From: Candidatus Gottesmanbacteria bacterium GW2011_GWA2_43_14
Lineage (GTDB): Bacteria; Patescibacteriota; Microgenomatia; 2-02-FULL-39-11
Assembly (NCBI GenBank): GCA_000999095.1
Contig: LCFP01000001.1
Span: 74,230-138,229, forward strand
Length of the DNA stretch: 64,000 nucleotides
Direction: 5' to 3'
Below are positions 3,600 through 61,272 of the stretch, piece after piece. The notes beneath the pieces are model-generated. The model saw only the letters and a program-made list of their open reading frames with translations, made no database searches and was not told where the DNA came from. Each line of letters begins with the position of its first letter. Position 1 is the first letter of the stretch. Both the position numbers and the translations under genes were made by a program.

Positions 3600-4643
3600 A
3601 TGCGGATTGCTTATATTGATATTGCCCGGGGACTGGCGATTATTGCCGTAATTGCCTCTCATACCGGTTATTTACCCTTCTCAAAATTTTTAGCTCCCTT
3701 TATCAATGCATGGATGATACCTGTTTTTGTAATTTCCGGCGGTCTGCTATTCAAACCGGATTCCGGCATATTTGTTTTTATTCAAAAGAAGTTTAATAGG
3801 CTTATTGTTCCCTATATTATGCTATTTAGCTTGAGTCTGATCGGATGGTTTTGGATAAAAGACGGTTATTCAAAACCAATGCTGGTTTTAACTTTAAAAG
3901 ATGTATCAGAAGGCTTTTTAAATGGTCAGGGAATAATATTTAACGGACCTTTGTGGTTCTTTCCGCCATATTTTCTGGCGTTAATTTTAACGCGCCTTAT
4001 ATTCCCCTTCTGGAAAATTATCGGATTAACCGGTAAATTAATCGTTTTGTTATTTATAGCGGGGATATTTGTGATTATATTGCAGCCAGGCACAAAACTC
4101 TTTTTTTCTTATGACTTATCCGTTTTATTCCTGTTTTTAATTTTATTTGGCCGGTTACTGGCTGATTTAAAAATAAATCTCAAATTTTCAGTTACGTTTT
4201 TTTCGATATTGCTGTTGGTTTTAATCGCAGGTTTATACCTGACTGGAGATACAAATATCTACAGCAAAAAATTCAATTATCCGATTCTTTATGTAATCAA
4301 TTCAATTCTGGCATCACTTTTAATTTTATCTTCAGCCACATATTGGGAAAAATTCGGAAGTTTCGCAGTCATTCAAAAATTGGGAAAGTATTCATTAATT
4401 CTTATGTCTCTCCACTGGCCTATCATGCAATGGATGACATACTTAATCAGCTTGACCGGTGTAATAAATCAGTTTAATACGGTTCCGACTTCGACCAATT
4501 TCTTTATCCCCTCCGAAGGACCCAGTTTCGGTCTTACTTTAATTAGAATTAGCTTATTTTCACTCTATTTGCTGGTTCCCATTGCCGCCACGATGCTAAT
4601 CATCAATCTGTGGATAAGACTCAAAAATCTGATATTCAATTAA
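3600..4643 (+). CDS. Acyltransferase family 3 (OatA/OafA-like) integral membrane protein
   Basis: 347 aa. N-terminus IDIARGLAIIAVIASH matches the acyltransferase_3 signature (DxxRGxAxxxV). About 10 predicted TM helices. This is the only long plus-strand gene in the first 54 kb. Its GC content is lower than the flanking DNA. Confidence 0.65.
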   Translation: MRIAYIDIARGLAIIAVIASHTGYLPFSKFLAPFINAWMIPVFVISGGLLFKPDSGIFVFIQKKFNRLIVPYIMLFSLSLIGWFWIKDGYSKPMLVLTLKDVSEGFLNGQGIIFNGPLWFFPPYFLALILTRLIFPFWKIIGLTGKLIVLLFIAGIFVIILQPGTKLFFSYDLSVLFLFLILFGRLLADLKINLKFSVTFFSILLLVLIAGLYLTGDTNIYSKKFNYPILYVINSILASLLILSSATYWEKFGSFAVIQKLGKYSLILMSLHWPIMQWMTYLISLTGVINQFNTVPTSTNFFIPSEGPSFGLTLIRISLFSLYLLVPIAATMLIINLWIRLKNLIFN

Positions 4644-4644
4644 C

Positions 4645-5793
4645 TTATACTCTCAAAGCGAATGAAGACTTATCGGGGTTATCAAGAAATAAATATTTTA
4701 GTTCTCGCTCTTTTTCAAATACAAAAATAGGAAATATTCTTGAATCGTCTCCTGTACTCGAAGAGGTAAATCCTCTATACAATAATTGCATTTCAGGTCC
4801 ATGTCCTGAAAATATATAATATATCCAGTCTGCTAAATATAACTGCCTATATTCATGTTTAGTTGGATTATTAAACATATTTGATCTCATTTTCTGAACT
4901 TCTTCAAGCGTTATTTCATAACCAAAAGTATTTTGAAGCCAAATAATAAATTTCTTTTCTGATTCTTCAAAATTTTCTCCTTTTTTATGTAATGTCATTT
5001 TTTTATTAGGTACTTCCTCAGATTCTGCAAGATCTCTTAATAAAATTAATCCTTTATCATTTAATGCATACCATAATTCTGTCATATAATACATCTGTTC
5101 ATCCGTTAAATAATGTCCAATTACGTCTGCAAAAATAAGATCGTAATTGCTTTCATCTTCATTATCTGGGTTAAATACTTTTTCTACACCTAAGGAAATA
5201 TCAAATAGGTCCTTTTGACGTGTATTTACAGTTATTTCTTTCCAATAATCTGATTCATAATATTGCTTGATAATTTCTAATGGACCTGCCGACAAATCAT
5301 AAATGTCAATCTGGCTTTTGAAACCATACTTTTGCAATCGGTCTATTAAGCTTACAGCAGTATAAATACTAATACATCCAGCTAGCATAATACGATTTGC
5401 TGTGGCGATTTTAGTTTTAATTTTTTCTGAGACGCCTGAGCTGACAGCAGCTTCATTTGTTGAAATTAAATCAAGAATATCACTAGCTGCACCTTCTGTT
5501 TCAACGACTGCAACATTCGGAGTAAGTGAATCAGGAAAAGGCGTTTTAATGATCTCACCCGAGTATTTACTTTGTGATTTTTCTATATTACTTAATGTGA
5601 TTCCACCACCATATTTATATAAATACCATAATTGAGCTAAAGGACTATGGAAAGTATCACCGAATGGTCCTATTTGTAATTCATTTCTCCATTTTATAGG
5701 CTTACTTTCTTTTCCACCAGTAAATAAGCCTGTTAATTTGTTAACAATTCTGGTTTCAATAGGAATTTGAGTAGGTATTTCAAATTTAGACAT
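4645..5793 (-). CDS. Class I SAM-dependent methyltransferase with an N-terminal domain of unknown function. Substrate unknown.
   Basis: 382 aa. Rossmann-like MTase core (IMLAGCISIYTAVSLIDRL ... DIYDLSAGPLE ... YDLIFADVIG). No DNA-MTase DPPY/NPPY or PCQ/ENV motifs were seen. The gene is markedly AT-rich (about 33% GC by eye, against about 47% in flanking DNA) and is convergent with the upstream acyltransferase. Confidence 0.5.
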   Translation of the reverse strand: MSKFEIPTQIPIETRIVNKLTGLFTGGKESKPIKWRNELQIGPFGDTFHSPLAQLWYLYKYGGGITLSNIEKSQSKYSGEIIKTPFPDSLTPNVAVVETEGAASDILDLISTNEAAVSSGVSEKIKTKIATANRIMLAGCISIYTAVSLIDRLQKYGFKSQIDIYDLSAGPLEIIKQYYESDYWKEITVNTRQKDLFDISLGVEKVFNPDNEDESNYDLIFADVIGHYLTDEQMYYMTELWYALNDKGLILLRDLAESEEVPNKKMTLHKKGENFEESEKKFIIWLQNTFGYEITLEEVQKMRSNMFNNPTKHEYRQLYLADWIYYIFSGHGPEMQLLYRGFTSSSTGDDSRIFPIFVFEKERELKYLFLDNPDKSSFALRV

Positions 5794-5995
5794 CCTGTAA
5801 TTATATCCTATAATATTTTATAGAATCAAATCCTTGATGTAATTAATGATGATGAAGTTTTAGTTAATGAAGTGAAATTAACAATAAAAGTGAATTATAA
5901 TCATGCGAACAAAAAATGGAAGAAATGAATAGTTTTGTAAGTTCAAATTGTCAAAACCTTCCCAGAATTGGACTATAAACCCGTAGCAACTTAAT

Positions 5996-7099
5996 TTAGT
6001 GTTTTCCCTGCCTTAGGAAGGCGGGGATGTCCCATTCGTCGTCTTCACCATTATCCTGTCCTGCGGCAGGTGCCGGAGCGTTATCTCCTGATTCAGAAGT
6101 GTATGAAGATGGTTCTTTGACTGATAGCTGCTGAAGTCTTCTTTTGGTTTCGTCAAATCCGGTGGCGACTACGGTAATTTTGACTTGGTCAACCATCTGC
6201 TCATCAATGGTTGCGCCGAAGATTATATTGGCATCCTGGTCGACGGACGCGGCAATCAGTTTAGCCGCTTCATCTACCTCGGCCATGGTAAGATCCGCCC
6301 CTCCGGTGATATTGAACAAAACACCCTTAGCCCCGTCAACCGAGATTTCCAAAAGCGGTGAGGATATAGCCATCCTGGCGGCTGCTGAAGCCCGGTTCTC
6401 GCCTACTCCGGTGCCGATCCCCATCAAAGCCGACCCGGCGCTTTTCATGATGGTCCTGACATCGGCAAAATCAACGTTGATCAGACCCGGCATGGTAATC
6501 AGATCGGAAATGCCGGTCACGCCCTGACCAAGGACTGAATCGACTATTTTAAAGGCATCAACCAAAGTCATTTTTTTATCAACCACATCCAAAATCCTCT
6601 GGTTGGGTATAACTATCAAAGTGTCAACTTTTTCCTTAAGGTTTAGAATGCCTTCCTCACCAGTCAGCATGCGGCGCGTTCCTTCAAATGAAAAAGGTTT
6701 GGTGACGACAGAAATCGTCAGGGCATTGGTTTCCCTGGCAATTTCGGCAATAATAGGGGTGGCTCCGGTACCTGTCCCTCCCCCTTCGCCGCAGGTTAAA
6801 AAGACCATATCAGAATCGGCCAGGATTTCCTTGATTTTTTCGCGTGATTCCTCTGCCGCCTGGCGGCCGATTTCCGGATCTCCGCCTGCTCCCAAGCCTT
6901 TAGTCAAATCATCGCCAATCTGGATTTTAACGGGAGCGGTGCAAGTCATAAGAGCCTGGGCATCAGTGTTGATCCCGATAAAATCAACTCCCTGCACCTG
7001 GGTTGATGAAATCATGGAACTGACCGCATTGCAGCCGCCGCCGCCGATACCGATGACTTTAATTTTAGCGAATCTGGCTATATCAGGTTTAATCAGCAT
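5996..7099 (-). CDS. ftsZ: Cell division GTPase FtsZ
   Basis: 367 aa. Tubulin signature GGGTGTG (TCGEGGGTGTGATPIIAEIA), the N-terminal GIGGGGCNAV motif, and an acidic C-terminal tail. Confidence 0.95.
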   Translation of the reverse strand: MLIKPDIARFAKIKVIGIGGGGCNAVSSMISSTQVQGVDFIGINTDAQALMTCTAPVKIQIGDDLTKGLGAGGDPEIGRQAAEESREKIKEILADSDMVFLTCGEGGGTGTGATPIIAEIARETNALTISVVTKPFSFEGTRRMLTGEEGILNLKEKVDTLIVIPNQRILDVVDKKMTLVDAFKIVDSVLGQGVTGISDLITMPGLINVDFADVRTIMKSAGSALMGIGTGVGENRASAAARMAISSPLLEISVDGAKGVLFNITGGADLTMAEVDEAAKLIAASVDQDANIIFGATIDEQMVDQVKITVVATGFDETKRRLQQLSVKEPSSYTSESGDNAPAPAAGQDNGEDDEWDIPAFLRQGKH

Positions 7100-11514: not shown

Positions 11515-12552
11515 TTAAGTAATAAAGGCCAACCACAATCCAACAATGGCCAGCACAATTGTCGCCAGCCAGGCACGCAGAACGATGGTCGATTCGTGCC
11601 AACCGCGGTTTTGCAGCCATAAATGAAAGGGGGCAACAGCCATTACCTTTTTGCCGGCATATCTTTTACTTAAAAGCTGAATCAGCGAAGTCGTGATTTC
11701 CAAAACAAAGATACCGCCGATAATAATCAGTGAAAATGTTTTACCCAGCATCAGACCGACCACAGCAAAAGTGGCACCGAAGGATAAAGCTCCAACATCA
11801 CCCAGAAAAATTCTGGCAGGGTAAACATTAAAGTATAGAAATGCCAGGATGCTGCCGAGCCAGATGGCAATAAACAGGGTCATCGGCGTATCCAGGATGG
11901 AACCTGAGATGACCCAAAAGGCAATCAGGGCTATCAGGAGTATGCCGGTGGCCAAACCGTCAAGCCCGTCGGTAATGTTATAGGCATTGGCAAAAGCTAC
12001 GATTACAAACGCGGCAAATAGTATATAAAATATTCCCAAATCGATAACACCTATAAGGGGAACATTAATTATGGAAATCTTCAAATCAAAATAAAGCCAA
12101 AAAGCCAATAAGAGCGCCAAAATAATCTCCAGCAGAAGTTTATGCCTTAACCGCAAACCGAAAAATTTATCCCGCCTGCCGAAAAAGATTTTTTTTATGT
12201 CGTCATAGAGACCGATCAAACCGAATGATATGAAACCGAAAAGCATAATTTTTAATTCTGCAGTTATATTGGGGTAGACAGAATAAACCGGCAGCCAGAA
12301 ATAATACATATAGGGAAAACTGAGTAAAAATATCAGGGTAGTATTGAAAATCAATAGAAATCCACCTCCGATTGGTGTACCGGCTTTTTTCCGGTGGAAC
12401 ATGTCGAAAATGGGTGTCGGTTTATTCAGGGCATCACGCGTTTCCTGCCGTTGTCTTTTAAATTTAATCTTATACAACAAGTTGATAAACGGTATGATGG
12501 TAACCGCATTTAACAGAAACGACAATATTAGAATTCCGAGTATAAAACCCAA
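11515..12552 (-). CDS. mraY: Phospho-N-acetylmuramoyl-pentapeptide transferase MraY
   Basis: 345 aa, polytopic. Contains the DD..DG motif (YDDIKKIFFG) and NAYNITDGLDGLA, both typical of MraY/WecA-family PNPT enzymes. Confidence 0.9.
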   Translation of the reverse strand: MGFILGILILSFLLNAVTIIPFINLLYKIKFKRQRQETRDALNKPTPIFDMFHRKKAGTPIGGGFLLIFNTTLIFLLSFPYMYYFWLPVYSVYPNITAELKIMLFGFISFGLIGLYDDIKKIFFGRRDKFFGLRLRHKLLLEIILALLLAFWLYFDLKISIINVPLIGVIDLGIFYILFAAFVIVAFANAYNITDGLDGLATGILLIALIAFWVISGSILDTPMTLFIAIWLGSILAFLYFNVYPARIFLGDVGALSFGATFAVVGLMLGKTFSLIIIGGIFVLEITTSLIQLLSKRYAGKKVMAVAPFHLWLQNRGWHESTIVLRAWLATIVLAIVGLWLAFIT

Positions 12553-12963: not shown

Positions 12964-13980
12964 TTAATAACCTTTGTAAATTTTCCTGAAATATTCGACC
13001 AGGTAATTGAAACGATAACCTAGTTTGCTGACGGGATAATCATGTGCATGCAGGTAATTTACCTGCTCTCCTCCGAATCCCTTTTTAAAAAGAGTCAAAT
13101 TCTTCCAGGGATGACGGTCCAGTCCGTCAGGGGCGATGCCCCAAAAATTATAAACCGACTTACCTCTCCTTTTAGCTTCTTTAATTACTTCCCATTGCAG
13201 GAGATAATTAACCGGAGCCTTGGATGGAATGGACGCGCTGTGATGGTATATTGCCTGATGGTTATAAAAAAGAATCATCGCTGATGAAAGGAGTATATTC
13301 TGAAAGAATCCCTCAAAAATCATTATCTGGCCGTCTTTGGCAAATTGCTCAAACTCTTCCTCTATCCCCCGGTGCCTTATAAATCCCTGCCTTTGTGCAG
13401 TTAAATTGTAAAGCTTTTGGAAACTTTCCAGGTTTTTTTTATCGGCTGATTTTTGGATAACTACTCCGGCTTTAGCCGCATTTTTTATCAGGTAACGGGT
13501 CGTTTTGCGCATACCGGCAAGCAACCTGTCTTCATCAGCCGAAAGGTCAAGCACCCAGCAAACTTCACCGTCCATTCTGTGTACCGGACTGGCTGTAAAT
13601 CCGGCAGATTCGATAATGAGGCGGTTTTCGGGGCTATTTTCTATCAAAGGACTGATCCTGATGAATACCGCACCCAGTTCCCGGGCTCTTTCTATAAGAT
13701 AGGCCTGCAATAATTCGAAATATTCTTTCTTCCACGTTTTCAGGACAGGCCCGTGCCTGATATGCAGAAATGACCCCCGCCTGGCATGGATTTTCTGGAC
13801 CTGGAAAATTCCTTCCAGATCTCTGTCAATAAATGCCAGTCTTTTAAAATCAGCTTTTTCCCGGGAATATATTCTCGAGGAAACCTCTCCCCAACTCCAC
13901 GATGAAAATAGGCTGTGTGGGGAGTTCTCTGCCAGAAACTTCTCCCACTTATTTTTATCGTTTATCTCAGCGATTCTCAT
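12964..13980 (-). CDS. FemAB-family peptidoglycan aminoacyltransferase (FemX/MurM-like)
   Basis: 338 aa. Family-level resemblance to FemABX (GNAT-like duplicated fold, FKKGFGGE near the C-terminus). Embedded in the dcw cluster. Confidence 0.6.
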   Translation of the reverse strand: MRIAEINDKNKWEKFLAENSPHSLFSSWSWGEVSSRIYSREKADFKRLAFIDRDLEGIFQVQKIHARRGSFLHIRHGPVLKTWKKEYFELLQAYLIERARELGAVFIRISPLIENSPENRLIIESAGFTASPVHRMDGEVCWVLDLSADEDRLLAGMRKTTRYLIKNAAKAGVVIQKSADKKNLESFQKLYNLTAQRQGFIRHRGIEEEFEQFAKDGQIMIFEGFFQNILLSSAMILFYNHQAIYHHSASIPSKAPVNYLLQWEVIKEAKRRGKSVYNFWGIAPDGLDRHPWKNLTLFKKGFGGEQVNYLHAHDYPVSKLGYRFNYLVEYFRKIYKGY

Positions 13981-15220
13981 ATTGCCTTAATTTAACTGCT
14001 ATACCAACTGCATCTGCTTCCTTCATATTAGGATAAGTCGGTAGGTTTAAACTGGTCTCTGCAGCTATTTCTGCTTTTGGACAGCAGCTTTTACGGTAGC
14101 CGATTTTTTTTAAATCGACACCAATAGGGTCAATAATGGACTGATACCAGTTACCTAATATGATGCCTTCAAGTTTGAAAAAGCGCAGCAGTTTTTTCGC
14201 TTCTGGGTGTAAAATATTATACCTCAGAAAAACCGCACCCGGCAGTTCGGGGGGCAGCTTAGTTTTCTTCATTCCGGCCAGCTCCCTTTGATATATCTCG
14301 CTGATAAGCCTTCTATGCCCGTTATATTCATGCAATTTGTCCAGCTGGTTGAGAAGCAGTACTGCCAGCGCGTTGGGCATCCGGGAAGGATACCGGTCCG
14401 GGCGGCCTCCGTTTAATTCCTTCCGCTCAACGGGCCGCGAAATTAATCCAATTTTCAAAGCGGCAAAAAGAAGCAGTTTTCCTAAACCTAGTCTGTAGAG
14501 GGGAAGAACGAGCGAAAAAAGCAGGGGGTGCATCAGTTGCTGCCCTATCCATTTATTTCCCGGCATTTTTAATTGCCCATATTTCTGTTTAATGACAATT
14601 GCCTGTTTCCCGCTTAAATTATTAAAGACAGCCATACCCCCAAAGATTGAGGAAATGACCTTGTCCCTGCCGAAAGAAAAAGAAGCCGCGTCGCCCCACT
14701 TGCCTGCAGCTTTTCCACCAATTTCTAAACCCAAAGCATGAGAACAGTCTTCTATAAGTACAATCTTGTATTTTTGAGTAATTTTTTTAATCTCATTTAT
14801 TTTAGCCGGCAAACCGAAAGTATGTTGAACAATTATTGCCTTCGTTTTCCGAGTTATCAGTTGTTCCAGAAGCTTAGGATCAATATTCAATGATTCATCT
14901 ATATCTGCATAAACGGGAATTCCCTTCCGCCATAGTATGGAGTCGGGAACAGCCACACAGGTAAATGCCTGGATGATTACCTCATCACCATCCCCGATTC
15001 CCAGAGCTTCTAGAATGAAATACAGAGCGCTCCTGCCGGAATTGAAGGAATAAACCCCGTCAGTATTAAAATTTTTCCTGAAACGGTTTTCCGCTTCTTT
15101 TATCGCCGGGCCTATCTTCCAACGGGAATAATTAAATACTGTCCTCAGGCACAGACTGATATCATCAGGTTGCAGATTAGGCGAAAGAGAGATGGCAATC
15201 GGTTTTTTAAAGAGATTCAT
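13967..15220 (-). CDS. DegT/DnrJ/EryC1/StrS-family PLP-dependent sugar aminotransferase
   Basis: 417 aa. The PLP-lysine context SFSFGRDKVISS and the GxxAL...DEVI layout match the family. Confidence 0.75.
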   Translation of the reverse strand: MNLFKKPIAISLSPNLQPDDISLCLRTVFNYSRWKIGPAIKEAENRFRKNFNTDGVYSFNSGRSALYFILEALGIGDGDEVIIQAFTCVAVPDSILWRKGIPVYADIDESLNIDPKLLEQLITRKTKAIIVQHTFGLPAKINEIKKITQKYKIVLIEDCSHALGLEIGGKAAGKWGDAASFSFGRDKVISSIFGGMAVFNNLSGKQAIVIKQKYGQLKMPGNKWIGQQLMHPLLFSLVLPLYRLGLGKLLLFAALKIGLISRPVERKELNGGRPDRYPSRMPNALAVLLLNQLDKLHEYNGHRRLISEIYQRELAGMKKTKLPPELPGAVFLRYNILHPEAKKLLRFFKLEGIILGNWYQSIIDPIGVDLKKIGYRKSCCPKAEIAAETSLNLPTYPNMKEADAVGIAVKLRQYENR

Positions 15221-16787
15221 TTAAATCGAAAAGCATTTTTTTAAGCCATTTTTGCGCTTCTTTGCCTTCAAAGATGACTACCGTTTCTTTTTTAGCCGAA
15301 GTAAGAATGTCAGATATTATAGAAGCAGATACAGTTTTAACGGGAACTGTGCTCTTTTTTTTCAATTCGGTTGAATAGTTGTCGTTGGTCACTATTATCT
15401 TGGTAAATACTGCCGATAATTTCCGGCCGAGAGCTAAGTGCACTTCATTTGCCTTTTCCCCTAATTCAATCAAAGGAGTCAAAACCAAATATTTATCCCC
15501 CTGATATTTAACGGCATAATCGGCAGCAGCTACCAATCCTTCATAGGTCACATTAAAAGTATCGTCAACCAATGTTAATATATCTGACCGGAAAACTGAC
15601 TTCATGGTTTTGTCCGCCGGCTCAATTCCCTGTAAAGCTCGGACAATCTGGCTATCAGTCAGCTTAAAATATTCCCTGGAGATGACCACGGCCATGGCTA
15701 TATTCTGCAGATTGTGTTCACCCAAAAGATTAGTCCTGACCATAATTTTTGAACCATTCATCTTAAAATTCAAACCATTAGTATCGGCATTAAAGCTGCT
15801 GAATTCGTCCGAAGTCGTAACTGACTGTACAGTTAAACCCCGACTGCGGGCTTTCTCGGCTATCTGACGGCAATACTTGTTCTCACCATTTACGGCCAGG
15901 AAACCCTTATCCGGCAGTCTTGCCGCCAGTTCATATTTGGCTTGTACCGTGTTTTCGATTGATCCGAAAAGGTCTATATGCTGCATACCTATACCCGTGA
16001 TAACAGCCGCCCCCGGCTTAACCAGCCTGCTTATTCCCGCTATTTCTCCCCGGCGGTAAGCTCCTGCTTCGACAATCAGGACTTCTGTTTCTTCATTAAC
16101 TTGCCGGTTGATTAACTTAGCTATGCCGATTTCTGTATTGACACTGCCCGGGGTTGCAACCACCCGGTATTGTGAGGAAAGTATCTGCTTTAAAATTTCC
16201 TTGGTAGATGTCTTTCCGTAACTGCCGGTCAGAGCTACGGTTTTTAAATTCCTGAAGTGTTCCAATTTTGTCCGTGCCCTGCGGATGGCAATCCTCTGTA
16301 TGATTGTTGTAGGCAGAAGGCCGGCTATAACCAGAATAGCCACCAAAGGTCCGGGCAGACGGTCAATAAGGGGCGCCCAAAAAAGCGGTGCGAACCAAAT
16401 TACGGTCATGATGGGTAAAAAGAGGACTGCCCATGATACCAGCAAAATCAGGAAGGCTTTGCCTGTCAGCTTGGGAATTTTCCATCCCCGGATAATCAGT
16501 TCATGTAAATTTAATGCAGCTTCGACTATCCAGCTCAGCCAAAATAACCAGTAAACGGCAATTAAAATCCGCGACTCCCTGACAAAAAGGAAAATCAGGA
16601 AAAGCAACCATTTGAAAAGTGCCATAGGACCCGCGATAAGTTTCCTGCCTAAAGGAGTTTCGAGGTGTGAACGCATCCGGTCAATACGGTATTCCCGTTT
16701 TTGCCACAGGAAAACCAGATAAAGCACCAGTCTTCCCGTCCTTACCAAATATGCGCCTGTGACTATCAGGGCTATCAGATTATGCAT
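15207..16787 (-). CDS. murF: UDP-MurNAc-tripeptide--D-Ala-D-Ala ligase MurF, with an N-terminal polytopic membrane domain
   Basis: 526 aa. Residues 1 to about 175 are hydrophobic with 5-6 predicted TM helices. They are followed by the Mur-ligase P-loop TGSYGKTSTKEI and the central and C-terminal Mur-ligase domains. Position after murE/ftsI and before mraY matches murF. Confidence 0.8.
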   Translation of the reverse strand: MHNLIALIVTGAYLVRTGRLVLYLVFLWQKREYRIDRMRSHLETPLGRKLIAGPMALFKWLLFLIFLFVRESRILIAVYWLFWLSWIVEAALNLHELIIRGWKIPKLTGKAFLILLVSWAVLFLPIMTVIWFAPLFWAPLIDRLPGPLVAILVIAGLLPTTIIQRIAIRRARTKLEHFRNLKTVALTGSYGKTSTKEILKQILSSQYRVVATPGSVNTEIGIAKLINRQVNEETEVLIVEAGAYRRGEIAGISRLVKPGAAVITGIGMQHIDLFGSIENTVQAKYELAARLPDKGFLAVNGENKYCRQIAEKARSRGLTVQSVTTSDEFSSFNADTNGLNFKMNGSKIMVRTNLLGEHNLQNIAMAVVISREYFKLTDSQIVRALQGIEPADKTMKSVFRSDILTLVDDTFNVTYEGLVAAADYAVKYQGDKYLVLTPLIELGEKANEVHLALGRKLSAVFTKIIVTNDNYSTELKKKSTVPVKTVSASIISDILTSAKKETVVIFEGKEAQKWLKKMLFDLNESL

Positions 16788-17508
16788 TTTCTTTTATGAA
16801 CCGGTCCGCTTCACCGGCAAAGTCAGGAACATGGGACCAGGGAACTCCGTGCCTGGCTCCGTCAACTACGGCAAGCCTGCCTTTCGGCAGCCGGCGAAGC
16901 ATTTTTTCGGCAACGGACAGCGGTACAATTTTATCGTGCCTGCCCCAAATAAGCAGTGTGGGAATTTTAACTTCCGGCAATAAAACCGACAGTTCCTCAG
17001 CCACGATGTTTTTAAATGTTTCTTTAAGCTCCGGTTTTGTCCTGTAAAAATCATTGGCGCCGCTTACTCTGTATAATGATTTTTTCATGATTTCCCTCAA
17101 AGGCTTAAAGATGGGCAGACTGAAAATCAGACCGCCCGCTTTGGCTGCTGACAGATATAAAAGACGCTTTCCTGATCCTACCGGCCTGACTCCGGGTGTC
17201 CCGCTTAAAATAAGGGCAGACAAAAGACTCTTTTCAGATGTTGCCAGTTTGATGGCAATTCTGCCGCCGAAAGAATGGCCGATAACTACTGGTTTTATTA
17301 TTTTTCTTTTTTCCAGGTAAACCCGTAAGAAATGCACATAATCGTCTAAATAAAAAGATTTACCTGCCATTTGGCTTTGGCCGAAGCCGGGCAAATCAGG
17401 AGAATAGACCTGATAACCCAATTTTTTGAATTCGGAAGTCAGCGGTTTATATCTGTCTGACGATAAATTCCAACCGTGCAGAATAACCAGAGGATGTTTT
17501 CGCTTCAT
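16780..17508 (-). CDS. Alpha/beta-hydrolase fold protein (esterase/lipase-like)
   Basis: 242 aa. Nucleophile elbow GHSFGG, an N-terminal HG oxyanion-hole motif (ILHGW), and a C-terminal His. Confidence 0.65.
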   Translation of the reverse strand: MKRKHPLVILHGWNLSSDRYKPLTSEFKKLGYQVYSPDLPGFGQSQMAGKSFYLDDYVHFLRVYLEKRKIIKPVVIGHSFGGRIAIKLATSEKSLLSALILSGTPGVRPVGSGKRLLYLSAAKAGGLIFSLPIFKPLREIMKKSLYRVSGANDFYRTKPELKETFKNIVAEELSVLLPEVKIPTLLIWGRHDKIVPLSVAEKMLRRLPKGRLAVVDGARHGVPWSHVPDFAGEADRFIKENA

Positions 17509-22978: not shown

Positions 22979-24387
22979 AATTCAGCCAGTATTGTTATAA
23001 GATCCGCGTGCCATCTGTATAAATTGCCGGCTCCCACAGTCATCAGTATGTCCCCCTGACGGACCGTTTGTTTCACATAATTTAAAACCTCTGCTTTACT
23101 ACGGACCAAAACAGCCTTACCGTCCAAGCGCTTGACTGCCTCAACCAGGAGGGAGGAACTGACTGACGGATCAGCTTTTTCCCTGGCTGAGGGAAATATT
23201 TCCGCCACGGCTGACACGTCGGCTAATGTCAAAGCTTGGGCAAAAGGTTCCAGCAGTTTTTTTGTCCGGGAATAAGTATGGGGTTGAAAAATGACAATAA
23301 TCCGGCGGTTCCTGTACCAGTCTCTGACTGAATTTAAGGTGGCGGTAATTTCCGTGGGGTGATGGGCATAATCATCATACAGGCTGATTCGGTCTTTTTC
23401 ATATATTTTTTCCATACGGCGGTTGCCCCCTGTGTATTTTTTCAGGCCTTCCTTTATTTGTGCCCAGGACAAATTGGCAACCAGGTTACAGGCTGTCATG
23501 GCAGCCAGGGCGTTAAGAAGGTTATGCCTGCCCGGAACTTTTACCATAAATTCACCGATTTCCTCGCCTTTAACTTCCACCGTCATAAAAGATACCCCTT
23601 CGGAAATATGATATTTTTTTATACGGAAGTCCGCTCTCGGTGAGAAGCCGTAAGTGGCAATTTTAGTATGCTTTATTTTTTGCAGAAGCTCAGAAGATTC
23701 TGCGTCATCCTGGCAGGCTACCAAATGGTCGCCGTTTTCCAGCGTATTTAAGGCAAACTGGAAATATGCCGCTTTGACTTCCTCAAGGTTGCGGTAGGCA
23801 TCGGGATGGTCAAATTCTATATTGGTGATAACCGCCAGGGAGGGTTTCTGCCAGAAAAATCTGGGTGTCGGGTCAGTGACCGGGCAAGTCATGTATTCGT
23901 CTGCCTCAGCCACAAAAAATTTCCCCCTGCCGGCATGTCCGGCAGCTCCCAGACCGTTGATATAGGCTGTACCGATTGCATAAGAAGGATCCAGGTTGGC
24001 AGATGACAGGATCATCGCGATCATGGAAGAAGTGGTCGTTTTACCGTGGCAGCCAGCCACGGAAATCCCCTGATAACCGGACATTACCGAGCCGATATAC
24101 CGGCCGTGCATGGAAACGGGAAGGCCGATTTTTTTAGCTTGAACAGCTTCCGGATTCGACATGCCTCCGTGGGCGCCGGTAACTATGACCGCGTCATATT
24201 TTTCGGTTATGTTTTCCTTGCTGAATCCTAATTTATGGGATATGCCTGCTTCGGCCAGCATGCGGTCGGTAAAAAAAGTTTCCGCTACATCGGAACCTGT
24301 GACTTTAAAGCCTTTTTCCTTGAGATAAACGGCCATGGCTGTCATGGCAACGCCTTTAATTCCGATCAGATAAGCTTTTTTTTTCAT
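22975..24387 (-). CDS. murC: UDP-N-acetylmuramate--L-alanine ligase MurC
   Basis: 470 aa. N-terminus GIKGVAMTAMAVYLKEKGFKVTGSD plus P-loop AGCHGKTTTSSMIA. Confidence 0.9.
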   Translation of the reverse strand: MKKKAYLIGIKGVAMTAMAVYLKEKGFKVTGSDVAETFFTDRMLAEAGISHKLGFSKENITEKYDAVIVTGAHGGMSNPEAVQAKKIGLPVSMHGRYIGSVMSGYQGISVAGCHGKTTTSSMIAMILSSANLDPSYAIGTAYINGLGAAGHAGRGKFFVAEADEYMTCPVTDPTPRFFWQKPSLAVITNIEFDHPDAYRNLEEVKAAYFQFALNTLENGDHLVACQDDAESSELLQKIKHTKIATYGFSPRADFRIKKYHISEGVSFMTVEVKGEEIGEFMVKVPGRHNLLNALAAMTACNLVANLSWAQIKEGLKKYTGGNRRMEKIYEKDRISLYDDYAHHPTEITATLNSVRDWYRNRRIIVIFQPHTYSRTKKLLEPFAQALTLADVSAVAEIFPSAREKADPSVSSSLLVEAVKRLDGKAVLVRSKAEVLNYVKQTVRQGDILMTVGAGNLYRWHADLITILAEL

Positions 24388-25046
24388 CAGCCTTTGCTAC
24401 TTTCTAATTGTATTATAGAAAAATTCCGCAATAATGTTTTATCCCTGCGGAATGAAGCATATTCCGGATTGCACGATGTGCAAATAGCGGTATCCTCCAT
24501 ATTGCCTGCAGACAGACCCGCATCACTCAACTGCCTTTGCGCTACCACAGATAAATCTAAATAAAAAGACTGATGCCGTTCTTCAAAAAATTTTACTCCC
24601 GGTATTTTGCGGGTAAAATTTTCAATGAGTTCACTTCCGACCTGATAACAGCATCTTCTTATGTGTGGCCCTATGGCCACCTGTAATTCGGATACATCCG
24701 CTCCCAAATCCTTCAGTTTTCTTACCGCATTCTGAAGAATGCCGGCGCTTAAACCGCGCCATCCTGCATGGACGGCACCGATCAGTTTTTTACCGGTCGA
24801 AAAGAATAATAGAGGCAGGCAGTCGGCAGTTCTGATTATAAGACTCCTGCCTTCGGAGGCAATAATACCGTCACAACCTTCATAATACTTCTTCCTCGAG
24901 GCTACGGAAATATTTCCGCTATGGATCTGTGCGCAGGAAGAAGCTTCTTTAATGTTTTTGTCATACAAACCTGAAACTGACTCTGCCTGATTCAAAAAGT
25001 GATGGCTCAGCCCAACCGGGGCTTGGAGATTTTTTGCCTGTATCAT
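24387..25046 (-). CDS. pgeF: Peptidoglycan editing factor PgeF (YfiH/DUF152 laccase-domain protein)
   Basis: 219 aa with conserved ADCLP and HAGWRG motifs. Confidence 0.85.
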   Translation of the reverse strand: MIQAKNLQAPVGLSHHFLNQAESVSGLYDKNIKEASSCAQIHSGNISVASRKKYYEGCDGIIASEGRSLIIRTADCLPLLFFSTGKKLIGAVHAGWRGLSAGILQNAVRKLKDLGADVSELQVAIGPHIRRCCYQVGSELIENFTRKIPGVKFFEERHQSFYLDLSVVAQRQLSDAGLSAGNMEDTAICTSCNPEYASFRRDKTLLRNFSIIQLESSKG

Positions 25047-25049
25047 AAA

Positions 25050-26267
25050 TTAAGCGGAGAGTGCTTTATTAACTGCCTGTCTTTCATCCCAAGGATATTC
25101 TGTTTTGCCGTAGCACATCGATTGCTCGTGCCCTTTACCGCAGATGATCACCGTATCCCCCGCCCCGGCCAGTTTGCGGATGGCAAAATTGATGGCTTCC
25201 TGCCGGTCAGGAATGCGGAAAAAATATTTTCCCTTCTCGGAAGGCGGCTGTCCGTTCTTTTTCTCCAATTCCTTCATGCCCGATCTCAGACAGCCTTGAG
25301 CTATTTGGGTAATGATCTTGCGTACATCCTCGGTCCGGGGGTCTTCAGCTGTAAGGACTGCATAATCCGCAATTTTACCGGCCACCTCTCCCATGATCGG
25401 CCTTTTTAATCGGTCCCTCAACCCTGCTGAACCGAATACGACTATCAGCTTTTTTTTTGTCTGTGATCTGGCAAAAATCAGGGCTTGGCTCAAAGCGTTT
25501 ATTTTATGGGCAAAATCAATCATAATTTTCAGCCCCCGCCTGTTTTTAACCTCTTCCATTCTGCCGGGAATGCCGTTAAAACTTTTTAAACCATTTTCAG
25601 CCGCTTCCAAATCCACTCCGCTTTCCCGGGCTGCAGCTACAGCTGCCAACATATTGGCTTTCTGAAATTGGGCCAATCCATCCGGCAGTTTAACTTTGTC
25701 GGGTGTAAAATCGGCTGTTTTATCCAGGGAAAAAGTAACAATTCCCCCTCTGGCCTTTTTTTTCAGGTAACTATAATTTTCATCGTCTTTATTTAAGACA
25801 ACCGTTTTGGCCCCTTGCATGATCCTGGCTTTGGCATTACGGTAATTCTCCATATTGCCGTGGTAATCCAGATGTTCATGGGAAATATTGGTAATGACAG
25901 CCGCATCAATTGAAGTCCCCAGTGTACGGAACTGGTCCAAAGCATGTGAAGTTGTTTCCAGGACAAGATAACGGCTGCCTTCCTTCAGGGCTTTTTTTAT
26001 CAGCTTCTGCAGGAAAAAAGGCGACGGAGTGGTGACATGAAATCCGGTATCATAATTTTCATTCCCTATGACCGCTTTGACAGTCGAGATCATGGAGACG
26101 GGCAGTTTTGCTTTTTTTAAGATATGGAACAAAATAAAAGCAGTTGAAGTTTTGCCGTCTGTACCGGTGATGGCTAAAACCATCATTTTACGGGCCGGGT
26201 AGCCGTAAACAAAACAGGCGGAAAGCGCCATTAAAAAGTGGCCAAAATTTTTTATACGGCGCATCAT
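25050..26267 (-). CDS. murE: Mur ligase; MurE by position and DPR motif. It lacks the usual N-terminal domain.
   Basis: 405 aa. P-loop GTDGKTST lies only about 35 residues from the N-terminus. AEDPRTED resembles the MurE D(N/D)PR substrate-specificity motif. Position directly after ftsI is canonical for murE. Confidence 0.7.
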   Translation of the reverse strand: MMRRIKNFGHFLMALSACFVYGYPARKMMVLAITGTDGKTSTAFILFHILKKAKLPVSMISTVKAVIGNENYDTGFHVTTPSPFFLQKLIKKALKEGSRYLVLETTSHALDQFRTLGTSIDAAVITNISHEHLDYHGNMENYRNAKARIMQGAKTVVLNKDDENYSYLKKKARGGIVTFSLDKTADFTPDKVKLPDGLAQFQKANMLAAVAAARESGVDLEAAENGLKSFNGIPGRMEEVKNRRGLKIMIDFAHKINALSQALIFARSQTKKKLIVVFGSAGLRDRLKRPIMGEVAGKIADYAVLTAEDPRTEDVRKIITQIAQGCLRSGMKELEKKNGQPPSEKGKYFFRIPDRQEAINFAIRKLAGAGDTVIICGKGHEQSMCYGKTEYPWDERQAVNKALSA

Positions 26268-44751: not shown

Positions 44752-47700
44752 TTATTTGGGAAGCCTGTTATCCGGGACAAGTTGAATAATTGTATATCGG
44801 TCAGTTTTGGCAATAAGTTTATAGAGTCTTAGGCTTTCATCTTTGTTAGTTGCCGCGGCAACGAGCTCCTTTGTCAACTCATCATTACCGACACTTACAT
44901 AGAAATGTGCGCCCATCTTAATCATGCCCTCAATATCCTTTTGCATGATAGGCCAGCCTGCCCTATTTGTCTGGTATAGAAAAGCCGTGTCACCGTTATA
45001 TGGAGCGATAACCAGCGATTTTCTGGGCGTTAACAGGTCTACCTGTCTGCCGGCTTCAACAATTTCCGGGTGGTTGATGTTGTAAAAATCGCGTATGTGG
45101 TACCAGGCAAACATCAGCATGAAGAAAACTGAAACCGCCAAAACAACCCTGACTTTCAGGCGTCCCAAGCTTTGGCTTAAAGACAGCAGATAAACCGCTC
45201 CTTTACCCAGAAAGATTGCGATTATGGGAATGGTCAAAACCTGGTAATAGTCATGCCTGACATTGCCGGTGGCTACGACGGTGACGAAAAGTAATATAGC
45301 CAGTCCCCAAAGATAATATAAGTTGTTTTCTGCTTTTTTCGGAGACAAAAGCCCCAGGATCAAAAGAGGCAAACCGAAATAGCCCAGGATTAATTTCCCC
45401 AGACGCTCGGCAAACATCCATTGGAAAAAGGCACCCTTAAACCTGATGCCGTCACCGTTTAACAGCCAGGAATTGGCCGGGATGCCTTCCGGAAAATTGC
45501 CGGACCAGACTCTCCAGCCGAAATAAGGCAACATGACCAGAATTAAATAAATCAGCAGAAATAGAAGTGTTTTCAAACTTATTTTTTTGTCCTTCAGGAA
45601 GATATAAGAAAGAGGCAAAAAGAGAAAGACGGTAAAAGGCTTGACAAGGACAGCCGCCGATGCAAAGATTAAAGAAATCGTAAGCCTGAAGATTTTATTA
45701 AAAGATCGGTATTCCCCGGCCTTATCGGCAAAATAAAGCATACCGGTAGTGGTAAAGGCCAGGAACGGTTCAGGCAAAATTGTCCGGCTGAAAAAGACAT
45801 TATATGGTAAAACTGCAAAGAAGGCGGACGACCAGAAAGCGGTGGCTCTGCCGCTGTACTTGCGGACAAGCAAAAAGATAAAAATCAAAGTCCCTAAAGA
45901 GGCCAGTACCGAAGTCAACCTCTCTTTAAGCTCCAGATGGTAGCCAACCAGCAGTTTGTCGACAGCTACCGCGGCAATGTTGTAAAGCGGAAATTCGACG
46001 AAACGGTAACCTTTGGGGTTGTCTTTACCCGAAGCTACATTGGACAAATCATCATAAACGGGATAGAGCAGATTGATTCCGTTTTTGACATAGTTACGGG
46101 TGACCGCCGAAGTATCCGCCTGCCTCCAGGAATGCCAATCAGCCAAAGGCTCGGCAATTTTGTACAGGCGGAGTGAAAAAGCCGGAATCAGAATAATAAG
46201 AAGCAAAAACAAATCGCTTTTTACAAAAATCAGGCTTTTTTTCTTCAGGGAGGAAAAAAAGCTTCCCAGATCCGCAACCTGGGGCTTGGGCACTTTTTTA
46301 TTATTGCCCCGGGAAAGATGGACACCGGCCAAAACAATTCCCGAGATAGCCCAGAAAGATTGGGCTACTTTGGATGATTCAAAGACATCAATATAAACGG
46401 CATTGACCATCAGTCCGAAAATCAAGCCGGCAAAACCCGCACTGACGGCAAAAAATAGCGGGTCCTCCAACACTTCCAGATTTCTCCAGACATAATAGAG
46501 CATGTATAAAAGCATGCCGTAAAAAGCGGCAAAACCGAAAAGCCCTGTTTCCCCCAATGCTCTCAGATAATCATTGTCTGTCGACTCGGCTTCGGTAAAT
46601 TCCGTCAGCTGGGTCTTATTCAAAGTGGAATAACCGCTGCCGAACAGCGGATTTTTCTTAAAGCCGGCAACAGCCCGGGGCCACAGTGCATCGAAACGGA
46701 TGGCTGTGGACAGATCATAGATAAATGCGGTTTGGGAATAGGTCCTCGCTTTTTCGGTGATGTTGCCGTCGGCATCCACGATTTTCAGGGGTATATCATC
46801 CTCAACATCGCTCGGCCGGCCGATAGTCGGCGGCTGGTCGCTTTTGGAAGTAATTCGGCTTAATGCAGAACTGTTGTTTTCCAAAAAATAGGCTTTGTCT
46901 GTCGGAGGTTTACCGATAGGCAGCATGACCAGGGATTTTATACCCGACAACCTTTCATCAAGCCTGAGAAACCGGGTAAATCTTTCCGATAAATCCCCGA
47001 ATGAGAGCATTATGACAATGGAAAGAACTGTCACTGCCAGGTATCTCTTCAGAGACCAGACCAGACCCCGTCTAAAGGACCAGAAGGCAAACATCAGAAA
47101 CAGGCCGGCCAGATATGCCAGAAAAGAAGTGCGCGACGCGGTCAGGATAAGAGTCCAGAAGGCTGCTGAAAGAATAATAAATACAATTGCTTTGGCTAAC
47201 AGTTTTTTTAAGGAGAAAAATATGCTCCAGAGAAGTATCAAAGCCATCATCATATAAGCCGCCAGGTCATAATGCCCTCCGAAAGTAGACAGCACCCTGG
47301 CATGTTCCGTCAGGTAAAGCATCCAGCCTTTGGAAAATTCCCTGTTCATGGTGGAAAAAGCCGGCCAGTAAAGATATTTTTGTCCGAATCCGTAAAGTGC
47401 TACCGTCAGGATTACGGCCGAGAGAATGTAAAAATAGCTTAGAGCCTGCTTTAAAGATTTGACTGTGGTAAAAAAAATAAAAAACAGGGAGAAATACTCA
47501 ATTCTTCTGAGGAAGTGCAACAGGACTTTGGAGACGTGAAGCGTTTCCAAAGGCACCGATTTGGCTATAAATAAGGCAGAGACGATGGAAAGCAAACCTG
47601 CTGAAAGGTAAACCGCCATCCATTTGCTCAGGGGATTGCCTTTTAAATTGATTTTGCCGCGCAAAAGCTGCGAAAACCAGATAATACCTGCCGAAAGAAT

Positions 47701-47847
47701 CAGAAAATCTTCCAGCCGTACCCTGACAATATAACCCGGCAGCACGTCCAAAAGCGGCAGCTTCGGATAAAGCGGGATGAAAATCAACAGAAACTGGGCA
47801 AAGATTGGCAGGAGATGGTTATCCAACCAACCGGTAAGCTTGCGCAT
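44752..47847 (-). CDS. Fusion membrane protein: N-terminal O-antigen ligase/polymerase-like (Wzy_C/WaaL-like) domain plus C-terminal GT-C fold (ArnT/PMT-like) glycosyltransferase domain
   Basis: 1031 aa with about 22 predicted TM helices. The N-terminal half carries ASRTSFLAYLAGLFL, a large loop, and FGSGYS...DNDYLRALGETGLFGFAAF (O-antigen ligase family signature). The C-terminal half starts with the helix LLIILIPAFSLRLY and a first extracytoplasmic loop HSWRQADTSAVTRNY (acidic-residue loop typical of GT-C enzymes), followed by many further helices. Confidence 0.55.
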   Translation of the reverse strand: MRKLTGWLDNHLLPIFAQFLLIFIPLYPKLPLLDVLPGYIVRVRLEDFLILSAGIIWFSQLLRGKINLKGNPLSKWMAVYLSAGLLSIVSALFIAKSVPLETLHVSKVLLHFLRRIEYFSLFFIFFTTVKSLKQALSYFYILSAVILTVALYGFGQKYLYWPAFSTMNREFSKGWMLYLTEHARVLSTFGGHYDLAAYMMMALILLWSIFFSLKKLLAKAIVFIILSAAFWTLILTASRTSFLAYLAGLFLMFAFWSFRRGLVWSLKRYLAVTVLSIVIMLSFGDLSERFTRFLRLDERLSGIKSLVMLPIGKPPTDKAYFLENNSSALSRITSKSDQPPTIGRPSDVEDDIPLKIVDADGNITEKARTYSQTAFIYDLSTAIRFDALWPRAVAGFKKNPLFGSGYSTLNKTQLTEFTEAESTDNDYLRALGETGLFGFAAFYGMLLYMLYYVWRNLEVLEDPLFFAVSAGFAGLIFGLMVNAVYIDVFESSKVAQSFWAISGIVLAGVHLSRGNNKKVPKPQVADLGSFFSSLKKKSLIFVKSDLFLLLIILIPAFSLRLYKIAEPLADWHSWRQADTSAVTRNYVKNGINLLYPVYDDLSNVASGKDNPKGYRFVEFPLYNIAAVAVDKLLVGYHLELKERLTSVLASLGTLIFIFLLVRKYSGRATAFWSSAFFAVLPYNVFFSRTILPEPFLAFTTTGMLYFADKAGEYRSFNKIFRLTISLIFASAAVLVKPFTVFLFLPLSYIFLKDKKISLKTLLFLLIYLILVMLPYFGWRVWSGNFPEGIPANSWLLNGDGIRFKGAFFQWMFAERLGKLILGYFGLPLLILGLLSPKKAENNLYYLWGLAILLFVTVVATGNVRHDYYQVLTIPIIAIFLGKGAVYLLSLSQSLGRLKVRVVLAVSVFFMLMFAWYHIRDFYNINHPEIVEAGRQVDLLTPRKSLVIAPYNGDTAFLYQTNRAGWPIMQKDIEGMIKMGAHFYVSVGNDELTKELVAAATNKDESLRLYKLIAKTDRYTIIQLVPDNRLPK

Positions 47848-59987: not shown

Positions 59988-61272
59988 TTTTTCGGCGGAG
60001 AGTAATATAAGCCATCATGGAAGTCAAAACCAATGTCAAGCCGTAGGAAAGTATTAAAGAATAAGCGGCACCGAAACTCCCGAATTTCGGAATGAAATAA
60101 AGATTGCCGAAAAAGACAACTATCAGCTGTAAAACGGCATTGACCGTCAGAATCTGCGGTTTTTTAAGATAATAGATTGATAATGATACAGCCGGCACGG
60201 AAGCGACAAAAAAGAGCATGGCCACTAAAAGCAGTCTGAAAACCGGTACCGCCGGAGCGGCTTTTTGCCCGAAAAGAACAGTCAGGAAAGGCTGGGCAAT
60301 CAGTATCATGCCTACCGTCGACAAAGTCAATAAAAAGGTTGCCAAAATAATTTTAAGCAAAAAAGAATTGAACTCCGGCTTTGTTTTTATCTTGGAGAGT
60401 TTGGGCGCCAATACTGCCGAGAAACTGCCCGACAGAAGCGGATAAATGGAGATGACTCTGGCAGCTATGGAATAAATGCCGGCTTCAGTGGCATTTTTAA
60501 TGGATATAATCATCAGGACATCAAGCCTTGACGACAAGGCAGTCAATCCTCTGGCAATACCTAAAAAAACCGTGAAAGAAAGCAGCTTCTTCAGGTCGCC
60601 GGGCGTGACTTTGACTTTAAGAAAATTGAATTTCACCATGGCAAAGGCAAAAGTGACCAAGAGCAATTGGGATATGAGCTGAATCTGAACAGTCTTTATG
60701 AGGGTCAACGAAAAAGCGGACAGCAATATTAAAAGTAATATCAGCCTGATAATTCCGCCTACGGCGGAAAGTACGGCATTTTGGACGAATCTTTGGCGGG
60801 CAACCAGGGTAAAAAGGGCGAAATTGGACATAATGGTAAAAGAAATGGCCAGCCCAATCAGTCTTACATGCATGGCAAAATCTAGGTTATGAAAGAGTAT
60901 TTGAGAAATGGCCGGCGCCAGGAACATCATAAAAACTAAAACTGCAAGGCTGATGGCAAATTGCAACAGGAAGGAAGTTTTTAAAAAGCTGAGGAGTCTG
61001 TTTGGTTTCTCTTCCATCGGCGGCAGAAATGACGAAAGCGATGAACCTATGCCTATATCGGACAGGTCCGACACCAGAATCATCAGGGATATGAATGCTG
61101 AAAAGTAGCCGAAATCAGCCACCGACAAATTGCGGACCAAAATGACGGTAAAGATGAAAGCGAAAAATGCCGACAGGAAATTGCCTGTAAAAACAGCGTA
61201 AGTATTGCGGGCAGTTGCCGAAAACATAAGCGTCAGAAAAGCTTTCCTATATCGATTTTTAAAGTTATCCAT
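59980..61272 (-). CDS. wzx: Wzx-like oligosaccharide/polysaccharide flippase (MOP superfamily)
   Basis: 430 aa with about 12 TM helices. Wzx/PST-family hydrophobicity pattern and conserved positively charged residues in the N-terminal helices. Confidence 0.65.
   Translation of the reverse strand: MDNFKNRYRKAFLTLMFSATARNTYAVFTGNFLSAFFAFIFTVILVRNLSVADFGYFSAFISLMILVSDLSDIGIGSSLSSFLPPMEEKPNRLLSFLKTSFLLQFAISLAVLVFMMFLAPAISQILFHNLDFAMHVRLIGLAISFTIMSNFALFTLVARQRFVQNAVLSAVGGIIRLILLLILLSAFSLTLIKTVQIQLISQLLLVTFAFAMVKFNFLKVKVTPGDLKKLLSFTVFLGIARGLTALSSRLDVLMIISIKNATEAGIYSIAARVISIYPLLSGSFSAVLAPKLSKIKTKPEFNSFLLKIILATFLLTLSTVGMILIAQPFLTVLFGQKAAPAVPVFRLLLVAMLFFVASVPAVSLSIYYLKKPQILTVNAVLQLIVVFFGNLYFIPKFGSFGAAYSLILSYGLTLVLTSMMAYITLRRKNG

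Follow-up and report, generated by a model that had tools for sequence, protein, structure and literature searches.

MurF is a textbook soluble cytoplasmic enzyme and an antibiotic target. Its structurally described members (Escherichia coli 1GG4, Acinetobacter baumannii 4QF5 and Pseudomonas aeruginosa 4CVM) carry a soluble N-terminal domain of about 80–100 residues ahead of the central and C-terminal domains, and in canonical Mur ligases this N-domain holds the uridine diphosphate (UDP) end of the substrate (PMC10117817). Within a 64,000-nucleotide window of the Candidatus Gottesmanbacteria bacterium GW2011_GWA2_43_14 genome (contig LCFP01000001.1; all positions are those of the window unless another locus is named), we find a gene on the minus strand whose product has a central domain like that of canonical MurF in sequence and fold and a C-terminal domain that appears to be so too, whereas the soluble N-domain is replaced by a 170-residue domain with five predicted transmembrane (TM) helices. 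This protein, here termed TM-MurF, also differs from canonical MurF in scoring below the curated murF cutoff, in forming its own clade and in being coupled, by gene order, to a serine hydrolase. What appears to be new is a conserved subfamily of membrane-embedded MurFs whose TM domain is uncurated and which has, as judged from gene neighborhoods, a near-obligate serine-hydrolase partner.

Other members of the Mur-ligase family share individual features with TM-MurF. MurT, of the MurT/GatD lipid II isoglutaminyl synthase, is a soluble family member with no known UDP-binding N-domain that works with the partner glutaminase GatD to amidate D-Glu and adds no dipeptide; its NCBIfam name assigns it to lipid II. 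MurT is found among the more distant Foldseek matches of TM-MurF, its model NF045635 gives only 20.8 bits to TM-MurF, and no GatD-like gene is adjacent to TM-MurF at the loci examined. The poly-γ-glutamate synthetase PgsB/CapB is an amide ligase of the same family that associates with the membrane through an N-terminal hydrophobic segment; it differs in having a single anchor helix, separate membrane subunits (PgsC/PgsA) and a homopolymer product, and its similarity to TM-MurF is marginal (17.4 bits). The fusion models PRK11929 (MurE–MurF), PRK11930 (MurF–alanine racemase) and PRK14573 (MurC–Ddl) show that MurF tolerates rearrangement and fusion to its neighbors, and the ligase part of TM-MurF matches the MurF halves of the MurF fusions. 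These fusions join soluble enzymes, however, and unlike TM-MurF none gains a membrane domain or drops the N-domain.

The TM-MurF gene and the parts of its product are as follows.

15207..16787, minus strand: TM-MurF gene, a single unbroken open reading frame (ORF) of 526 residues plus stop; best family murF (TIGR01143)
16278..16787, minus strand: N-terminal membrane domain, residues 1–170, from hydropathy, AlphaFold2 helices and charge pattern
16689..16703, minus strand: motif Q29-K-R-E-Y33 (family QxxEY) at the predicted cytoplasmic end of TM1, from alignments
16458..16475, minus strand: motif P105-K-L-T108-G-K110 (family KKPxxxTxR) in predicted cytoplasmic loop 3 before TM4, from alignments and a loop charge of +2.9
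15663..16277, minus strand: linker helix and Mur ligase central (ATPase) domain, residues ~171–375, Pfam Mur_ligase_M
16203..16229, minus strand: ATP-binding P-loop, T187-GSYGKTST-195, aligning with the E. coli MurF P-loop
15210..15662, minus strand: probable MurF-type C-terminal domain, residues ~376–526, with DDTFN and IELG motifs, from TIGR01143 (to residue 508) and Foldseek

The ligase part identifies the protein as a MurF. Pfam Mur_ligase_M (PF08245) covers residues 187–368 (E 1.5e-38) and is the sole Pfam match in TM-MurF; the Mur ligase N-domain, PF01225, gives no Pfam match in the protein. The murF model TIGR01143 aligns residues 171–508 to profile positions 65–405 of 418, and since the alignment begins at position 65, the first ~64 profile positions, which represent the soluble N-domain, are absent. 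The murF score of 203.5 bits compares with 64, 63 and 59 bits for murC, murD and murE, respectively. The top PDB sequence matches are all MurF (4ZIY at E 3.8e-31), as are the best Foldseek matches, 4QF5 from A. baumannii (E 8e-27), 4CVM from P. aeruginosa and 3ZL8 from T. maritima, with about 370 aligned columns to MurF structures and a structural-similarity TM-score of 0.73 normalized to the target. The P-loop residues G188, S189, G191 and K192 are invariant in the family alignment, and the P-loop, E240, H270, K284, D408 and the ELG motif are all invariant in the alignment with E. coli MurF. The central domain is of the MurF type, as the C-terminal domain appears to be, and between them they retain the catalytic residues and motifs: the P-loop, Glu240, His270, Lys284 at the position of the carbamylatable lysine, DDxxN and ELG.

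The region ahead of the ligase is strongly hydrophobic. Kyte–Doolittle hydropathy, calculated in 19-residue windows with a threshold of 1.6, exceeds that value at residues 4–22, 49–92, 104–141 and 139–168 and nowhere beyond residue 170. The AlphaFold2 model of whole TM-MurF, built with 112 homologues, has a predicted local distance difference test score (pLDDT) of 95.4 and a predicted TM-score (pTM) of 0.91, and places five long helices in this region (residues 2–30, 54–68, 72–99, 109–128 and 145–176) together with two short ones (35–42 and 45–52); the helix at 145–176 joins the last TM segment to the ligase without a break. The initial annotation had proposed that a polytopic membrane domain of about 175 residues replaces the soluble N-domain and that the P-loop begins near residue 185. 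Hydropathy, the Pfam result, the starting position in TIGR01143 and the AlphaFold2 model bear out the first proposal, and TGSYGKTST at residues 187–195 agrees with the second. Its count of five to six TM helices was right as to a polytopic domain, with the long helices of the model setting the number at five. Loss of the UDP-binding N-domain is likewise upheld by the lack of PF01225, the murF profile start and the occupation of residues 1–170 by the five TM helices.

The pattern of charge and conservation orients this domain. Over the 112 sequences the net charge is +2.7 for residues 29–53, +2.9 for residues 97–109 and +4.1 for residues 166–182, while the N-terminus and the remaining two loops are neutral. 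Because the pattern follows the positive-inside rule, it gives a predicted topology in which five TM helices put the N-terminus outside and the C-terminus and ligase inside. Q29 and Y33 are kept in at least 90% of the 112 sequences and are invariant in the 22- and 29-sequence alignments; T108 is invariant and P105 nearly invariant in the 112 sequences, and R37 and A171 are also conserved. All of the conserved membrane-domain residues fall in cytoplasmic segments of the predicted topology, on the same side as the ligase, and the basic linker helix is positioned on this face as well. A Pfam scan of 29 membrane domains with E up to 1 returned only scattered, single, non-significant matches, NCBIfam holds no specific model for the domain, and a Foldseek search of the membrane domain against the PDB gave no match (best E 1.2). 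The membrane domain is a genuine conserved domain, homologous across the family, and is more than a simple anchor.

A Patescibacteria MurF of the TM clade (locus L077, 9668–11041; 457 residues, with the hydrolase still upstream) is without most of the hydrophobic helices but retains LQQEEYD, which corresponds to QxxEY, and KIVWTPK, with the motif KxxxT. Since the motifs are kept despite helix loss, the comparison suggests that selection maintains the motifs rather than mere anchoring, and this protein may be a natural 'minimal' version of the family.

The architecture is widely shared. Among 5.8 billion proteins searched, 281 relatives of TM-MurF were found, and the best 120 of these are mostly 470–575 residues long with the P-loop mostly at residues 170–220 and, a few short sequences excepted, two to six (mostly three to six) hydrophobic segments before it. 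When residues 1–175 were searched alone against 1.8 billion representative proteins, 121 matches were obtained, in which the domain is N-terminal and most of which are 446–564 residues long; the shorter ones that were inspected are contig-end fragments continuing into GITGSYGKTSTK of the ligase, and no stand-alone membrane-domain gene was found among the 121. Where matches were checked, the membrane domain thus appears to be found fused only to a MurF-type ligase. A scan of species-representative genomes yielded more than 595 relatives with the collinear architecture, and the family ranges over the whole Patescibacteria radiation, Poribacteria, Clostridia, Bacteroidales, Balneolales, Chloroflexota and others. 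Alignments with homologues begin at residue 1, which supports the ATG at 16787 as the likely start of TM-MurF; in the JGI gene call, P0001, the otherwise identical protein starts later and is 13 residues shorter.

In a rough neighbor-joining tree of the ligase parts with a MurE outgroup (in which the 'canonical' Shinella sequence is a mis-picked MurE ORF, to be disregarded), 73 of 100 bootstraps recover the TM family as monophyletic, and the family lies apart from the canonical MurFs of E. coli, S. aureus, Neochlamydia, Subdoligranulum and Acetoanaerobium, and is set with MurF relative to the outgroup. A tblastn search of 72,556 plasmid records found only canonical murF genes and no copy of the TM type. 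Full-text searches of the literature on MurF, Mur ligases and the Candidate Phyla Radiation (CPR)/Patescibacteria yielded no description of the architecture, which does not disprove that one exists elsewhere. TM-MurF seems to represent a distinct, conserved, multi-phylum MurF subfamily that is apparently undescribed. For annotation, this means that TM-MurFs fall below the curated murF threshold and that their N-terminal domain is without a family model.

The genes that accompany TM-MurF in the window and bear on its function are the following.

16780..17508, minus strand: partner α/β serine hydrolase, 242 residues, Pfam Abhydrolase_1 and Hydrolase_4; its stop overlaps the TM-MurF start
13967..15220, minus strand: DegT-like pyridoxal phosphate (PLP) enzyme, 417 residues, Pfam DegT matched over the N-terminal half only
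12964..13980, minus strand: FemAB-family peptidyltransferase-like gene, 338 residues, last of the four-gene unit, Pfam FemAB (E 2.4e-25)
11515..12552, minus strand: mraY, the next pathway step, Pfam Glycos_transf_4, 2.65 kb downstream of TM-murF

TM-murF is positioned inside a division and cell wall (dcw)-type cluster on the minus strand, which begins with mraW, ftsI, murE, pgeF, murC, murB, murA, a GlmU-like gene and glmS and continues with the α/β hydrolase, TM-murF, the DegT-like and FemAB-like genes, mraY, ftsW, murG, ftsQ, ftsA and ftsZ. Canonical murF is likewise found in the dcw cluster near mraY, and the mraY gene that had been reported about 3 kb downstream is at the position given above. 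The listed ORFs overlap by 8 nucleotides between the hydrolase and TM-murF and by 14 nucleotides both between TM-murF and the DegT-like gene and between the DegT-like and FemAB-like genes. No other MurF-like gene is present within the window. Neither murD nor ddl was found in the 64 kb, though the genes for all remaining steps from glmS to murG are grouped there; the syntenic Gottesmanbacteria locus L007 likewise runs from mraY to ftsW without murD between them.

The window MurE (25050–26267, minus strand) is only 405 residues long and is without an N-terminal domain: the NCBIfam MurE equivalog aligns to it from profile position 89, and the gene begins just 60 nucleotides from the ftsI stop. 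MurE relatives in Patescibacteria are 405–432 residues long with the P-loop at residues 39–50 (L007 546–1802, L010 4338–5636 and L027 2270–3487), and the Poribacteria MurE is full length at 521 residues. With the short MurE and TM-MurF together, both MurE/F-type N-domains are gone in this lineage.

Across 74 sequences of the partner hydrolase, the nucleophile elbow GHSxGG (Ser79), Asp192, His220 and the HGW oxyanion motif show no variation, and no hydrophobic stretch exceeds the TM threshold; because of the invariant triad and the lack of such a stretch, the protein is apparently a soluble serine hydrolase that is active. Its nearest characterized relatives are mixed esterases and lipases, which give no specific assignment. 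The DegT-like protein has a hydrophobic insertion at about residues 226–262, and 11 of 24 homologues have an above-threshold stretch at that position.

We annotated 85 distinct loci from the species-representative genomes with our own ORF calls and phmmer. The α/β hydrolase lies directly upstream of TM-MurF in 71 of the 85, which marks it as a probable near-obligate partner, one that would be translationally coupled to TM-MurF. DegT-like and/or FemAB-like genes follow in 26 loci, from Patescibacteria (including Paceibacterota, Saccharibacteria, Staskawicz-, Magasanik-, Nealson-, Wildermuth- and Gottesmanbacteria) and one Chloroflexota genome. The divergent DegT-like gene trails TM-MurF across Patescibacteria (L006, L007 and L010–L039), with the FemAB-like gene conserved behind it, and the two fill the position held by ddl in other phyla. 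A D-Ala-D-Ala ligase, which clears the NCBIfam subfamily cutoff (339 bits versus 262), is adjacent in Clostridia, Tissierellia, Bacteroidales, Poribacteria and Iodidimonas, downstream at 32 loci and upstream at one; canonical MurF, too, is found beside ddl. In five Poribacteria genomes the order is ftsI–murE–hydrolase–TM-murF–ddl–mraY–murD–ftsW–murG–murC, so that the module occupies the classical murF position between murE and mraY. Synteny is identical in a Gottesmanbacteria genome and similar in Paceibacterota.

The remaining arrangements are more scattered. In Balneolales TM-murF stands alone among housekeeping genes, in one Bacteroidota genome the hydrolase–TM-MurF pair is found among unrelated genes outside any cell wall cluster, and in Iodidimonas (Alphaproteobacteria) the order is sensor kinase, Ddl, hydrolase and TM-MurF, outside any dcw cluster. 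No case of TM-MurF co-existing with a canonical MurF was seen among the loci examined. A 440-residue ligase by mraY in the Firmicute locus L008 was first taken as a canonical MurF, but NCBIfam assigns it to MurE, as it does a 470-residue neighbor. This second MurE paralogue (470 residues) is paired with an opposite-strand 578-residue amidase (L008 10214–13359, from a spore-forming Firmicute), and the pair sits between TM-murF and the murE–mraY genes.

On these comparisons, TM-MurF probably serves the organism as its housekeeping enzyme for adding D-Ala-D-Ala, is built into the membrane and, as we assume by default, uses UDP-N-acetylmuramoyl (UDP-MurNAc)-tripeptide as its substrate. We favor this assignment because of the place of the gene in the dcw cluster, the lack of another MurF in the 64 kb, the murF slot occupied in Poribacteria and the adjacent ddl. 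The ligase would use ATP to activate the free carboxylate of the MurNAc-tripeptide and would join D-Ala-D-Ala to it, as canonical MurF does, and the cytoplasmic loops and linker could stand in for the N-domain and grip the sugar-diphosphate end of the substrate. The reaction would thus take place at the membrane surface, beside MraY; the initial annotation had suggested that the arrangement could reflect a membrane-associated Mur-ligase complex. The cytoplasmic and membrane stages of wall synthesis would then be divided at a different point in a large share of bacterial diversity. One guess for the hydrolase is that it trims faulty stem-peptide ends to the tripeptide for MurF to rebuild; in E. 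coli, LdcA trims stem-peptide ends back to tripeptide.

Several points weigh against a housekeeping MurF of ordinary function. The 203.5 bits on TIGR01143 fall under the curated murF cutoff of 288.6, a shortfall that accompanies the missing profile positions 1–64; the Poribacteria TM-MurF reaches 263.3 bits. PF02875, the Pfam model for the Mur ligase C-terminal domain to which the incoming D-Ala-D-Ala binds in MurF, is detected in most relatives but not in TM-MurF, and the sequence DDTFNVTYEG departs from the family DDxYNxNPxG. The search for MurF-like genes covers the 64-kb window, and a second, canonical MurF elsewhere in the genome is possible. The Iodidimonas TM-MurF is probably an extra copy, so the family may serve a purpose different from bulk MurF activity. 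Finally, since one helix would suffice as a tether, the conserved polytopic domain and the conserved hydrolase partner suggest more than the canonical reaction.

It is possible, although we consider it unlikely, that TM-MurF instead adds D-Ala-D-Ala to undecaprenyl-diphosphate-MurNAc-tripeptide (lipid I or lipid II carrying a tripeptide), in which case the membrane domain would bind the polyprenyl-diphosphate carrier and MraY would act before MurF. The replacement of the whole UDP-binding N-domain by a conserved polytopic domain, and not by a single anchor helix, is consistent with such a substrate. So is the placement of conserved basic and polar motifs at the predicted cytoplasmic membrane interface, where the lipid diphosphate head group would sit, but the helix loss with retained motifs in L077 fits binding of a soluble ligand equally well. 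The MurE of the same genome also lacks its N-domain; this MurE gained no membrane part, however, so that loss of the N-domain alone implies no lipid substrate, and Poribacteria pair TM-MurF with a full-length MurE in the ordinary murE–murF–ddl–mraY order. Precedent is divided in the same way: MurT, a Mur-ligase homologue acting on lipid II, is among the distant structural matches, and a FemAB-family gene is present in the same operon, some staphylococcal enzymes of that family acting on lipid II, but routine use of the tripeptide nucleotide by MraY has no precedent known to us.

A broader form of this idea, which we regard as doubtful, is a membrane stage in Patescibacteria and several other phyla in which stem-peptide assembly would be completed on the lipid carrier, MraY would precede MurF and the hydrolase would trim aberrant stem-peptide ends for rebuilding. 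If true, it would amount to a membrane-stage branch of peptidoglycan precursor synthesis and repair that has gone unrecognized. The MurE without an N-domain hints that UDP-independent substrate handling may reach further up the pathway.

That TM-MurF is an accessory paralogue, belonging to a stem-peptide rebuilding module of hydrolase, MurF and Ddl or FemAB-like protein that would serve in repair, in salvage of scavenged wall fragments or in antibiotic tolerance with a canonical MurF encoded elsewhere, seems improbable. The sensor kinase–Ddl–hydrolase–TM-MurF order of Iodidimonas, away from division genes, and the isolated Bacteroidota pair would suit such a module, but the copies in the window, Gottesmanbacteria, Paceibacterota and Poribacteria lie within the dcw cluster with no other MurF there. 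Extra murF copies are found on Streptomyces plasmids, though these are not of the TM type, and none of the plasmid records searched holds a TM-type copy. The strictly conserved hydrolase triad points to an extra chemical step, as the module would require, whereas the small genomes of Patescibacteria make a redundant second MurF less likely.

A frameshift or misassembly that fused a truncated murF with a gene for a small membrane protein, the alternative named in the initial annotation, has the 13-residue-later JGI start as its sole hint and is ruled out, as far as can be judged, by the continuous ORF, the recurrence of the collinear layout across many phyla in hundreds of independent assemblies, the helix at 145–176 that crosses the junction unbroken in the AlphaFold2 model, and the finding that the inspected short membrane-domain matches are fragments and not stand-alone genes.

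Other features of the window are recorded here. A PgeF homologue lies between murE and murC (24387–25046, minus strand) and scores 143 bits on TIGR00726, just over the cutoff. Positions 4001–6000 have a guanine-plus-cytosine fraction of 0.314, compared with about 0.45 elsewhere, and the ORF at 4645–5793 (minus strand, 382 residues) in this stretch beside ftsZ has no Pfam match. A glycan-synthesis cluster of about 28 kb (approximately 36–64 kb) contains many GT2 and GT4 glycosyltransferases and several PMT_2 membrane proteins, among its genes one for a 1031-residue protein (44752–47847, minus strand) with O-antigen ligase-like Wzy_C and PMT_2 glycosyltransferase domains. A second DegT gene, this one canonical (61265–62377, 392 bits), is located in the same cluster.

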